Part shown: positions 16,972 to 51,226 of the stretch, one piece after another
How positions within the stretch are numbered: the stretch's first letter is position 1
How the letters are laid out: the number at the start of each line of letters is the position of its first letter
DNA from: an uncultured Alphaproteobacteria bacterium
Lineage (GTDB): Bacteria; Pseudomonadota; Alphaproteobacteria; Bin95
Length of the DNA: 62,650 nucleotides
Assembly (NCBI GenBank): GCA_963974445.1
Contig: CAXBDI010000005.1
Coordinates: 1-62,650 of the forward strand
Direction: 5' to 3'
The notes under the pieces: generated by a model
The model's database searches: none
The model's input: only the letters and a program-made list of their open reading frames with translations
What the model was told of the DNA's origin: nothing
Translations under genes and position numbers: made by a program

Positions 16972-18672
16972 TTAAGCCACCCACTCCGACACAGGGGCGG
17001 CGGCCTCGTGCAGGGGTTGCGAGATTACATCGACCAGGGTCGGCCCGTCGTGCTCTAGTGCCTGTTTCAGTGCGCTTTTCAAGTCGGCGGGGTCGGTGAC
17101 GGTCCAGCTTTTGACGCCGAACGCTTCGGCGACGCGGGCGTGGTCGGTGCGGTCGAAATCGACATTGTAGTAACGCTGGCCGAAGCCCGAATGTTGCCCC
17201 GCCTTGATCCAGCCGAAGGTGCTGTTCGAGAACACGACCGACGTGATCGGCATCTTGTGCCGGACGATGGTCTCGAACTCGCCGCAGCAAAAGCCGAACG
17301 AGCCGTCGCCCATCATCGCCACAGTCTTGACGCTGGGATCGCCCACATGCGCACCCATCGAGGCGGCCAATGCATAGCCGAGCGCCCCATGCGCGCGGTT
17401 GCTGATAAAGCGCCGCCCGGCCTCGCGCCAGCGATAATGGGCTGAGACATACGGGCAGGGCGTGCCGGGATCGGCGACAATAATGGCGTCGTCGTCGAGC
17501 AGGCCGTGTAGCGCGCTCATCACAACCTCCGGACGGATCGGCGTCTCCCGGCTCGCAGCCAGCGGCTCGAATGCGGCGAGCTTGCCGGCCCAGGCCTTGG
17601 CGGCGCGGGAGGCGCCGTTCTGCGGGCGCAGGTCGGCTTGCGCCTCCAGTGCGGTGGCCAGCGCTTCCAACGCCAGGCGGGCGTCGGCGTTGATGGCGAC
17701 GGCGGTCTGGTAGTTCGCGCCGATCACCATCGGGTCGCTGTCGATATGGACGATGGTCTTGCCGGCCGGCGGCGAGCGCCAGCGCTCTGTCGTGACGGAG
17801 CCGGCGCGGCAGCCGATGAACAGCACCACGTCCGCCTCGTCGACCACAGCGCGGGTCGAGGGCACCCCGCCATTCGAGCCGACGACGCCAACCGCCAGCG
17901 GGTCGGTCTCGGCAATTGCGCCCTGGCCGGAGACAGTGGTGGCGACCGGCATCTCCAGCAGCCGCGCGACGCGAGCGAGCGCCTCGAACGCGCTGGCGAT
18001 CACCGGTCCACCGCCGCAGACCGCAACGGCGCGGGAGGCCTTGGCGAGAATACCCGCGGCCTCTTCAATCGCGGCGGGATCGGGTGCTGTGGGCTCTGCC
18101 GGGTAGGTGCGGTGGCGCGGGTCAGCCCAGATTTCCGCCTCATCGACGGCATTCTTCTGCGTGTCGAAGGGCAGGGCCAGATGCGCAGCACCAGGCCGAC
18201 CTGTGGTCATGGCGCGAAAGGCGGCACGGACCATCGCCGGCAGTCGGGCGGCGTCGTCGAGGCTGGTATTCCATTTGCTGACCGGGCGATACAGCGCCAC
18301 CTGGTCCAACTCCGTCAGCGGATAGCGTCCGCGCGACGCGGTAGAGACGTCCGTTGTGATCGCCAGGATCGGCACAGAGCTCTCATTCGCCTCGACCACA
18401 CCCGGCAGGATGTAGGTAGCGCCGCCGCCGGAAGGCCCCTCGCACACGCCGGGCTTGCCGGTGATGCGCGCGTACCCGTCCGCCATATAGGCCGCGTGAC
18501 GCTCGTCCCGCGTCAGGATGTGGCTGATGCCGTGATCGAGGCGGGCCAGCGCGTCATAGAAGGGCAGGGTGGTGTCGCCGCAAAGCCCGAACATGTGCTG
18601 CACGCCATGGACTTGCAGCATGCGCACCATGGCCTCCGCGCCGGTGAGGTGGTTGGGGGTGGGGGAGGTCAT
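16972..18672 (-). CDS. Thiamine diphosphate-dependent enzyme (acetolactate synthase large subunit-like)
   Basis: TGAEAMV, RDERHAAYMADGYAR, ThDP motif GDGSFGF...FSN. Confidence 0.9.
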   Translation of the reverse strand: MTSPTPNHLTGAEAMVRMLQVHGVQHMFGLCGDTTLPFYDALARLDHGISHILTRDERHAAYMADGYARITGKPGVCEGPSGGGATYILPGVVEANESSVPILAITTDVSTASRGRYPLTELDQVALYRPVSKWNTSLDDAARLPAMVRAAFRAMTTGRPGAAHLALPFDTQKNAVDEAEIWADPRHRTYPAEPTAPDPAAIEEAAGILAKASRAVAVCGGGPVIASAFEALARVARLLEMPVATTVSGQGAIAETDPLAVGVVGSNGGVPSTRAVVDEADVVLFIGCRAGSVTTERWRSPPAGKTIVHIDSDPMVIGANYQTAVAINADARLALEALATALEAQADLRPQNGASRAAKAWAGKLAAFEPLAASRETPIRPEVVMSALHGLLDDDAIIVADPGTPCPYVSAHYRWREAGRRFISNRAHGALGYALAASMGAHVGDPSVKTVAMMGDGSFGFCCGEFETIVRHKMPITSVVFSNSTFGWIKAGQHSGFGQRYYNVDFDRTDHARVAEAFGVKSWTVTDPADLKSALKQALEHDGPTLVDVISQPLHEAAAPVSEWVA

Positions 18673-18731
18673 GGCGTTTATTCCATAAAGACTAGTTCAG
18701 TTGGTGATCAGAGAGACCGCGATCCCCCACC

Positions 18732-18770
18732 TCTTCACCCTGAGCCGCCGCGCAGCGGCGAGTCGAAGGG
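18732..18770 (+). repeat. 39-bp palindromic repeat, left arm flanking the GIY-YIG gene
   Basis: TCTTCACCCTGAGCCGCCGCGCAGCGGCGAGTCGAAGGG; inverted partner at 19119..19157. Confidence 0.85.
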
Positions 18771-18798
18771 CTGGTAGAGTGAAGACAGGTGCAATTCT

Positions 18799-19108
18799 TC
18801 ACTCGCCAAGATTTTTTCGCCTCGCTCTGCCGTTGCGCGCGAGCCGATGAATAGCATCCCAGTCGCTGTCGATAAGTGCCTGCTTCTTCGCCCGACTCCA
18901 GCCATTGATTTGCCGTTCGGCTGCAAAGGCGTCTGTGTAGCTGGCGAAGACCTCTGCCCTTGCCGTTCTACCGGCCGACGTCTCGCCGTACAAGCGCCGC
19001 CATGTCCGGTATTGTGCTGGTCCAACCGGTGCGCAATGTTCGTATGTCGCGGCATCCGACATGGAAGCTACCGTCGGCGCAGCGCAGTATATAGACGGTA
19101 GCGTTCAT
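18799..19108 (-). pseudogene. GIY-YIG (UPF0213/YhbQ-like) nuclease, two frameshifts
   Basis: Three successive frames give MNATVYILRCADGSFHVG / RHTNIAHRLDQHNTGHGGACTARRRPVE / AEVFASYTDAFAAERQINGWSRAKKQALIDSDWDAIHRLAR, which together form one standard small GIY-YIG protein. Confidence 0.85.
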
Positions 19109-19118
19109 TGTGAGCAGA

Positions 19119-19157
19119 CCCTTCGACTCGGCCCTTCAGGCCGGCTCAGGGTGAAGA
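19119..19157 (-). repeat. 39-bp palindromic repeat, right arm flanking the GIY-YIG gene
   Basis: Reverse complement TCTTCACCCTGAGCCGGCCTGAAGGGCCGAGTCGAAGGG; ends identical to the left arm, inner hairpin different but still paired. Confidence 0.85.
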
Positions 19158-19200
19158 AAGAGGAGAGCGCTTTGATTTAGCGCGCTCCCGACTTCCTATC

Positions 19201-20439
19201 CTACTCCGCAGCGCGCGCTTGCCTTGGCGGCCAGTCGACCTGGCGGCGCAGTTCCAACTTGGCGATCTGCTGGCGATGCACCTCGTCCGGGCCGTCGGCG
19301 AAGCGGAGCGCGCGCATACGGCTCCACATGAAGGCCAGTTTGAACTCTTGGCTCATGCCGCCGCCGCCATGGGCCTGCATGGCGTTGTCGATGATCTTCA
19401 GCGCCATGTTCGGCGCCGCGACCTTAATCATGGCGATTTCCTGGCGGGCAGCCTTGTTGCCGACCGTGTCCATCATGTAGGCGGCTTTCAGCGTCAGCAG
19501 GCGGCACATCTCGATGTTGATGCGGGCGTCGGCGACGCGCTCCATGAAGTTGTCGCGCTCGGCCAATTGTTTGCCCCAGGTCACACGCTCCGTACCGCGT
19601 TTGCACATCATCTCCAGCGCCCGCTCGGCGACACCCATGATGCGCATGCAATGGTGGATACGGCCTGGCCCGAGCCGGCCTTGCGCGATCTCGAAACCGC
19701 GGCCTTCGCCCAGCAGCATATTCTCCTTCGGCACGCGCACATTCTCGAACAGAACCTGACCATGGCCGTGTGGGGCGTCGTCATAGCCCATGACGTGCAG
19801 CATGCGCTCGACCGTAATGCCGGGGGTGTCGCGCGGCACCAGAATCATCGATTGCTGGCGGTAGGTGGGGGCGGAGGGATCGGTCTTGCCCATCACGATC
19901 AGGATTTTGCAGCGCGGATCGCCGATGCCGCTGGTCCACCATTTGCGGCCATTGATGACGTATTCGTCGCCATCGCGCTCGATCCGGCATTCGATATTGG
20001 TGGCGTCGGAGGAGGCGACTGCCGGCTCCGTCATGGCAAAGGCAGAGCGGATTTCGCCGTTGAGCAGCGGCGTCAGCCAGCGCTTTTTGTTGTCCTCCGA
20101 GGCATAGCGCTCGAGCACTTCCATGTTGCCGGTGTCCGGGGCGGAGCAGTTGAAGGCCTCCGCCGCCCAGTTGACCCGGCCCAAAATCTCGCAGATCGGC
20201 GCGTATTCCAGATTGGTGAGGCCGGCGCCGTTGCGGGATTCCGGCAGAAACATGTTCCAGAGGCCCTCATCCTTGGCCTTCTGCTTGACCTCTTCCAGGA
20301 TGGGAATGACGGTCCAGCGGGTGTCGGCCTCGTCCAGTTGCTGATAATACAGCGCTTCGTTCGGGTAGACGTAACGGTCCATGAAATCCTGGACGCGCGC
20401 GCACAATTCCTTAGTGCGATCGTTGAACTCGAATTGCAT
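19201..20439 (-). CDS. Acyl-CoA dehydrogenase (ACAD10/11-like bacterial group)
   Basis: [61 protein letters not shown]. Confidence 0.94.
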
Positions 20440-51140: not shown

Positions 51141-51226
51141 TGTCCCGGGCTTGACCCGGGATCCATGCCTGAGCGCATCTCACGCGCAACAGCCTGTCAC
51201 GCATGGGCCCCCGCTTTCGCAGGGAA
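51141..51226. repeat. Inverted palindromic repeat doublet (REP-like, different family)
   Basis: TCCCGGGCTTGACCCGGGATCCATGC ... GCATGGGCCCCCGCTTTCGCAGGGA between convergent genes. Confidence 0.65.

Follow-up and report, generated by a model that had tools for sequence, protein, structure and literature searches.

The window, by which we mean the whole 62,650-nucleotide stretch of DNA analysed here, is contig C5 of an assembly (G000; 3.91 Mb, 63% G+C, 219 contigs) of an uncultured alphaproteobacterium, hereafter the host genome. Between positions 18732 and 19157 it carries a compact cassette made of two inverted copies of a 39-nt repeat, which we call arms, and a decayed gene for a small GIY-YIG nuclease. 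The left arm (18732-18770) stands in its forward form on the plus strand, where it reads TCTTCACCCTGAGCC-GCCGCGCAGCGGC-GAGTCGAAGGG, that is, outer box, inner hairpin and closing box; relative to the minus-strand gene it lies downstream and is reverse-oriented. The right arm (19119-19157) has its forward form on the minus strand, and its reverse complement reads TCTTCACCCTGAGCC-GGCCTGAAGGGCC-GAGTCGAAGGG. The first 16 and last 12 nt of the two arms are identical and their difference is confined to a 13-nt middle, which is still palindromic in both (left GCCGC-GCA-GCGGC, right GGCC-TGAAG-GGCC), confirming the two inverted 39-bp arms with compensated inner hairpins described in a first-pass annotation of this DNA. 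Beyond the arms proper the inverted repeat reaches 52 nt, weakly (18719-18770 / 19119-19170; 77% complementary).

The sole content of the 348 nt separating the arms is a broken minus-strand GIY-YIG reading frame, a YhbQ/UPF0213-like pseudogene (18799..19108) whose ATG (19108-19106, minus strand) lies 10 nt downstream of the right arm; that the arms enclose this gene and nothing else, with the start codon 10 bp from one of them, had been claimed before and is correct. Two further minus-strand genes, for an acyl-CoA dehydrogenase (19201..20439) and a ThDP-dependent enzyme (16972..18672), flank the element and lie outside it. A terminator-like hairpin of the dehydrogenase gene (19167..19183, minus strand) abuts the right arm on its outer side, so that the cassette is bounded by this hairpin on one side and by the beginning of the ThDP gene on the other.

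Alignment with an intact homologue of 105 residues, found in a genome of the same genus (G004), resolves the pseudogene into three pieces in three frames and hence at least two frameshifts. Residues 1-19 lie in a first frame (19108-19052, 74% identical), residues 21-48 in a second (about 18966-19049, 64% identical, E 9e-10) and residues about 51-92 in a third (18966-18835), with a stop codon at 18799-18801; these matches confirm the earlier judgement that this copy is dead. The first tyrosine motif, VYIL, is present, and the second reads HVG as against Y[VIT]G in 41 homologues. Because the gene has decayed, its fragments do not reach the PF01541 cut-off (22.6) in a Pfam search, and a whole-genome scan gives E 0.58 at 18966-19046; an intact homologue (L020) scores 57.4 bits and a host paralogue 43 bits. 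NCBIfam held no useful family for the intact homologue or for the window fragments.

That paralogue, at C210:1908-2317, is the only one that the window gene has in the host genome. It has a reverse-oriented type III arm (see below) about 35 bp upstream, and its similarity to the clade ends after about codon 60-62, close to where its 2.3-kb contig stops; another element may have interrupted it. No intact member of the clade was found in the host assembly (97.4% complete, 219 contigs), though about 98 arms remain there. With the window copy frameshifted and the only paralogue truncated, the enzyme is apparently gone from the host genome, and these arms are apparently its orphans.

The ThDP and dehydrogenase genes are also adjacent in G004, about 100 bp apart, and the spacer holds a plain hairpin alone, with neither an arm nor a GIY-YIG gene; the intergenic DNA of G004 does not align with the window, so that the comparison establishes the state of the site and leaves the insertion junction unreadable. 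A look at this site in relatives had been suggested in the first-pass annotation, and in G004 it has yielded a same-genus counterpart free of arms and gene. In the other ten relatives examined the dehydrogenase gene has different neighbours. The intact G004 homologue sits at another locus in the same order as in the window, forward arm, gene, reverse arm, and there has a complete 109-nt doublet (our term for an inverted pair of arms) on each side, the two copies being in direct orientation.

Arms of the host genome and their turnover

A pattern for the window's arm finds 18 copies in the host genome, all of them on other contigs. They make up nine inverted doublets, seven clean and two degenerate, whose spacers vary from 17 to 27 nt (18-27 nt by the strict patterns described next). 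The gene-less inverted doublets reported previously thus exist in the same genome but not, as had been stated, elsewhere in the window, inside which no further arm or doublet of this family was found. Strict patterns separate three related arm subtypes that have the boxes ..CCTGAG.. and ..TCGAAGG.. in common: type III (44 arms, GAGTAG-hairpin-CGTATCGA); type II (30 arms, GAGCYTGTCGA, without an inner hairpin); and type V, the window's kind (20 arms, GAGCCG-hairpin-CGAGTCGA). In total these patterns pick out 98 unique arms in the host genome and no more than 6 in simulations, and the 20 type V arms compare with 0-1 in two Markov simulations; the arms are no chance match. Neighbouring arms form 28 convergent pairs (gaps 14-29 nt) and 7 divergent ones, and the family as a whole is mostly arranged as gene-less inverted doublets.

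The inner hairpin varies in sequence and keeps its pairing. Of the 44 type III inner segments, which comprise 40 distinct sequences, 39 close with at least 4 bp; of 18 type V segments, with 16 distinct sequences, 13 do so, as against about 3% of shuffled segments. This is strong evidence of compensated variation, in which the structure is kept and the sequence is not. Single arms fold no more stably than shuffles (z -1.0 and -1.8), so folding energy is uninformative here, and it is the compensated variation that speaks for the hairpin. Folded doublets are predicted to form branched hairpins. Branched hairpins are the kind of substrate cut by Slx1. Rfam contains no family for the arms, the one match being to a miRNA, below threshold (E 0.4), and no direct repeat of the kind left by target-site duplication was seen beside 10 host doublets inspected by eye.

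At three places in other genomes (G105:C333:56-106, G041:C22:378-428 and the arm downstream of the homologue at L060) a complete hairpin-less arm forms the inner hairpin of a larger arm. Such nesting of arms in the loops of other arms suggests that insertion or breakage takes place in the loop that the GAG and TCGA boxes enclose.

Two gene-less host doublets were compared with their orthologous sites in the genus. The orthologous spacers of G004, G006 and G003 lack the first. The second, a type V doublet at C6:14191-14284, corresponds to a type III doublet in G004 and G003 and to a single arm of a further, type IV-like subtype in G007 (doublets at L227:3360-3449 and L229:2302-2399, single arm at L228:2382-2425), and to nothing in G006, G001 and G005, where gaps of 2-24 bp remain. 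Doublets are therefore gained and lost at orthologous sites within the genus, and the C6 site reflects either repeated insertion at a hot spot or the overwriting of one subtype by another.

Arms and gene across the class

We used the G004 protein as query against 401 genomes of the class and obtained 43 matches at E <=1.4e-19 outside the host genome. The best 40 of these 43 loci were taken with up to 8 kb on each side, leaving out the three weakest (in G028, G115 and G053), and with L020 they make a set of 41 loci, with intact homologues from about 38 genomes. The homologues are 95-112 residues long and their gene neighbourhoods are diverse, about 30 different ones among 40 loci. Arms were located with a structural motif (a 5-mer, YGAG, 3-60 nt, HCGAR and the complementary 5-mer with at most one mismatch), which is non-specific at the scale of a genome (587 matches vs 645-665 in simulations), so the flank counts rest on a matched control and on inspection of the listed arms. 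A forward arm lies within 200 bp upstream of the gene at 32 of 41 loci, a reverse arm downstream at 30, both at 24 and any arm at 40; among 282 control ORFs of at least 120 codons from the same loci, the corresponding numbers are 11 (forward), 14 (reverse) and 1 (both). The possibility, raised beforehand, that such genes are flanked by the repeats no more often than random genes is strongly contradicted by these data.

The layout is also oriented. The nearest upstream arm is forward at 28 of the 40 loci, reverse at 5 and missing at 7; the commonest arrangements are F[gene]R (8 loci) and RF[gene]RF (5 loci), where F and R are forward and reverse arms, and by eye a forward arm precedes and a reverse arm follows nearly every homologue. 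The arm-gene-arm layout proposed from the window is thus a conserved property of the gene clade. Both arms of one gene belong to the same subtype at 21 of 23 loci. On the fully resolved protein tree the subtype changes 12 times against a shuffled mean of 16.2, a modest signal, and once weakly supported branches are collapsed no clustering of subtypes is left. Within the clade, arm subtype tracks the protein tree only weakly; since the signal vanishes on the support-collapsed tree, we make no claim that arm subtype and protein co-evolve within the clade. We also dropped the idea that the upstream arm supplies a ribosome-binding site, the distance from arm to start codon varying from 9 to 104 nt.

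Several features of individual loci deserve mention. Five homologues from five families (L023, L025, L026, L038, L044) lie between pccB and pccA, each with arms; in the host genome these two genes are 15 bp apart (C51:8567-8583), with neither arm nor gene. This shared position could reflect vertical inheritance of a domesticated gene or a hot spot; the five do not form one clade on a weakly supported tree. At two loci of the window clade (L033, L048) and one of the sister clade described below (L083) the small GIY-YIG gene directly follows an ImuB-like gene, and at the former two a DnaE2-like polymerase gene comes next, so that the GIY-YIG gene lies inside an SOS mutagenesis cassette. Many homologues (among L021-L059) read through the downstream arm and acquire tails such as PHPSTSSG, SFDKLRTS, PELVEG, LLRQAQDEV and SSFET....PQDE; the arms are a likely source of such tail peptides in annotated proteins. 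Decay of the gene recurs in the clade, with frameshifts in the window, truncation in the host paralogue and stops at L060.

At the level of whole genomes, the pattern CAYCCTGAG-N(3-50)-TCGAAGGRTG was sought in the same kind of 401-genome sample, with the reversed pattern as control; it is present in 64 of 401 genomes and the control in none. Of 37 genomes in which the gene was scored as present (best E of <=1e-19, a threshold picked after the list had been seen), 27 contain arms, as do 37 of the other 364; this gives an odds ratio of about 24, not corrected for kinship. Of the arm-rich genomes (at least 10 arms), 16 of 26 have the gene and 10 have none that is detectable, five of the latter being 96-99% complete. 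The sister clade shows a much weaker link: by a hand tally it is represented in 32 of the 64 genomes that have arms and in 93 of the 337 that do not. The gene, arm and sister-clade tallies include an unpublished genome (G064), and the sister-clade tally also includes G263; none of the other results depends on these two genomes.

The exact 27-nt hairpin-less arm occurs at more than 122 places in public genomes, most of them alphaproteobacterial metagenome-assembled genomes. It is also found in MAGs labelled Dehalococcoidia/SAR202, Acidobacteriota, Chloroflexi, Planctomycetota, Elusimicrobia and Hydrogenophaga (the loci with non-alphaproteobacterial labels are L104, L105, L109, L123, L136, L161, L163 and L177), which points to spread across phyla or to contamination of bins. 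The window-clade gene lies within 400 bp at 2 of 80 such arm loci that were fetched.

Two nuclease clades and their repeats

L020 matches solved UPF0213 proteins, BH0048 (1zg2) at E 1.1e-13 and EF2693 (1ywl) at E 1.8e-11. The host genome contains in addition three small GIY-YIG genes of a sister clade, 39% identical to the intact homologue, on C8, C101 and C2, and a paralogue of that clade matches UPF0213 at E 3.6e-4 at best. The gene at C2:66863-67784 has an internal TAA and is bordered on each side by a CCCGGG-type doublet of roughly 105 bp, the two being direct copies, the one at C101:13970-14646 lies between direct copies of another GC-rich repeat, and the one at C8:51788-52706 has palindromes downstream only. 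The sister clade is represented in 125 of the 401 genomes of the class. At 40 fetched loci its genes are flanked by CGTC-type, NTS-like hairpins, one of which (L085) is the exact Neisseria NTS consensus, and the published SRM pattern occurs at 15 of 40 sister-clade loci vs 1 of 40 window-clade loci. In the host genome that pattern (HGTCWY...RNCYNB) occurs nowhere within 500 bp of 5 small GIY-YIG genes and is not enriched overall (29 vs 23-41 in simulations). A single CCCGGGCTTGACCCGGG palindrome, of the CGTC-REP or NTS-like kind, is present in the window at 51144-51160.

In a tree of 84 proteins the sister clade forms one branch (SH-aLRT 78) with the window clade outside it, and E. coli YhbQ groups with the window clade with weak support (SH-aLRT 43 and 78). 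Because of the hairpin type, the SRM counts, the UPF0213 matches and this tree, we assign the sister clade, on sequence grounds, to the published Ssn family and the window gene to the YhbQ/UPF0213 branch. The Ssn family is defined as cd10448, and we judged membership by proxy, from the separate branch that contains the proteins with NTS-like hairpins and excludes the window-type protein. In E. coli itself arms would not fit beside yhbQ, which begins 50 bp past yhbP and overlaps yhbS.

Ssn proteins, according to Chenal et al. 2025 (PMC11893778), cut single-stranded DNA site-specifically beside NTS/SRM hairpins; SsnA in Neisseria limits transformation by NTS-bearing DNA, and the unit NTS-ssnA-NTS is likened to an insertion sequence. 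That article contains no mention of UPF0213, YhbQ or cd10456. The likeness to the system described there is close: in both, the protein is a GIY-YIG domain of about 95-110 residues and little else, its gene stands in a repeat-gene-repeat arrangement, and the repeat is a hairpin scattered through the genome in tens to hundreds of copies, whose presence across genomes goes with that of the gene. Unlike Ssn, the window protein has its sequence relatives in E. coli YhbQ and in the solved UPF0213 proteins and stands apart from the NTS-bearing clade, and unlike NTS, the window arms are nested hairpins with CCTGAG and TCGAAGG boxes and no CGTC tag. The YhbQ/UPF0213 branch has been grouped with Slx1 (PMC7017083), so that the catalytic domain of the window clade comes from the same branch of structure-selective GIY-YIG nucleases as those of Slx1, YhbQ and YazA; unlike Slx1, the window clade has neither a PHD or zinc-finger tail nor an Slx4 partner.

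The arms also resemble REP/REPIN-RAYT systems as these are described by Di Nocera et al. 2013 (PMC3733652), in that short intergenic palindromes occur mostly as inverted dimers (98 arms and 28 convergent pairs in the host genome) and a single-copy enzyme gene is flanked by repeats presumed to be its targets. According to the same paper, the CGTC-tagged REPs of Alphaproteobacteria have no transposase dedicated to them. The window enzyme differs from RAYT in class, being GIY-YIG and not HUH, and the arms differ from the REPs of that paper in having neither a GTAG nor a CGTC tag, nor a stem of 8-9 bp with a loop of 4-5 nt, and in their hypervariable inner hairpin. The arms are not REPs of the gammaproteobacterial type. 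The proposal of the first-pass annotation that a GIY-YIG nuclease stands here in place of a Y1 transposase agrees with our failure to match PF01797 (Y1/RAYT) anywhere in the host genome (97.4% complete; as a control, the profile matched 6 of 14 known genomes).

The first-pass annotation regarded the locus as an under-described system. Full-text searches, outside which most subscription journals lie, returned no paper that describes the pairing of the YhbQ/UPF0213 clade with arms, and to that extent the assessment holds; repeat-gene-repeat architecture as such, on the other hand, is already published for the sister clade (PMC11893778). Full-text searches for GIY-YIG genes together with REP, REPIN, MITE or flanking palindromic or hairpin repeats gave no relevant paper, the COG2827/YhbQ/UPF0213 literature that was found has nothing on repeats, and the arm sequence searched as text met unrelated primers only.

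A decayed nuclease cassette and its alternatives

We interpret the locus as the decayed cassette of a YhbQ/UPF0213-type nuclease that would cut its own arms and thereby spread them, and we put the probability of this reading, anatomy and mechanism taken as a whole, at roughly 0.6. Its anatomical part is very secure: a forward hairpin arm, a single-domain GIY-YIG gene of YhbQ/UPF0213 type (Slx1-related) and a reverse hairpin arm form a unit that is present or absent between relatives, and gene and arms co-occur across genomes. The mechanism is a more tentative matter, which we rate slightly below an even chance. Since the kin of the window gene are sister to Ssn, where the relation between nuclease and hairpin is proven, cutting of the arms is suggested by analogy. 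The nuclease would recognise its own arm folded in single-stranded (or extruded) DNA and might nick it in, or close to, the GAG/TCGA boxes, which are conserved and unpaired. Repair of the resulting breaks from other copies would then spread and homogenise the arms, and would occasionally copy the gene-bearing form into a new site. The role of such a unit may be selfish or repeat-maintaining.

On a wider proposal, which we consider doubtful, nested-hairpin repeats (CCTGAG...TCGAAGG arms) would form a superfamily that crosses phyla and has the YhbQ/UPF0213-type nucleases as its dedicated enzymes. Repeated breakage and repair at the boxes would, on this proposal, produce inner hairpins that are hypervariable yet palindromic; arms, and now and then the gene, would insert into the loops of other arms; and one arm subtype could be overwritten by another at a fixed chromosomal site.

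The gene might instead have a domesticated host function as a chromosomal ssDNA-restriction or DNA-damage enzyme, a role of the sort put forward for SsnA in Neisseria, with the arms as its scattered recognition sites, nothing selfish or mobile by the enzyme's own action, and the gene-adjacent arms serving autoregulation or being simply the nearest sites. The limit that SsnA sets on transformation by NTS-bearing DNA (PMC11893778) speaks for such a role, as do the pccB-pccA position common to 5 of 40 homologues, the two same-genus homologues between imuB and dnaE2, E. coli yhbQ, annotated as a DNA damage response nuclease and without room for arms, and a Caulobacter COG2827 gene reported to have an SOS box (PMC1839093). 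We nevertheless think it unlikely, given about 30 different neighbourhoods among 40 loci, the presence or absence of the whole unit between close relatives and the ease with which the gene decays (broken in the window, truncated in the host paralogue, with stops at L060); moreover, the strictly oriented, symmetric layout of the arms is not explained by regulation alone. Mobility could also belong to the gene alone, which would target the centre of pre-existing doublets in the manner of a homing gene while the doublets spread by another process. All empty host doublets are indeed forward-reverse pairs with spacers of 14-29 nt and the gene lies exactly at that centre, and arms nest inside the loops of other arms, so arm centres are prone to insertion. 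Relatives at two comparable filled sites, however, have no doublet at all (ThDP-ACAD in G004, pccB-pccA in the host genome), many genomes have the gene flanked by two whole doublets and not placed inside one, and the protein, at 95-112 residues, does not carry the extra DNA-binding domain of known GIY-YIG homing enzymes; this makes a homing gene quite improbable.

The least credible alternative, and one to which we give hardly any weight, is coincidence: ordinary REP-like terminator or structural repeats with a small orphan gene among them by chance. That arms are abundant and mostly gene-less, that the gene lies within 400 bp at only 2 of 80 arm loci of other genomes, and that arm-rich genomes without the gene exist are what it would predict. 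It accounts poorly for the presence of both arms at 24 of 41 gene loci when just 1 of 282 control ORFs has them, for the orientation bias of the nearest upstream arm (28 forward, 5 reverse), for a genome-level odds ratio of about 24 with zero matches to the reversed pattern, and for the different hairpin class carried by the sister clade.

The window copy is only a relic, and its value lies in its family, which is akin to the Ssn/NTS kind described in 2025. The arms are among the commonest short repeats of alphaproteobacterial-type genomes, and they produce spurious ORF tails in annotation. To our knowledge the UPF0213/YhbQ proteins, widespread and with solved structures, have no settled role, and with a DNA hairpin of their own they would have a substrate that can be put to direct test. 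Were they the dedicated enzymes of these repeats, there would be a second, non-HUH and non-DDE, route for making and spreading REP-like DNA. If the pairing of nuclease and arm is true, the Ssn principle, a small nuclease with its own single-stranded DNA hairpin, would extend to a second clade with a different site, with consequences for the biology of repeats as well as for the tools for cutting ssDNA that have been proposed on the basis of Ssn.
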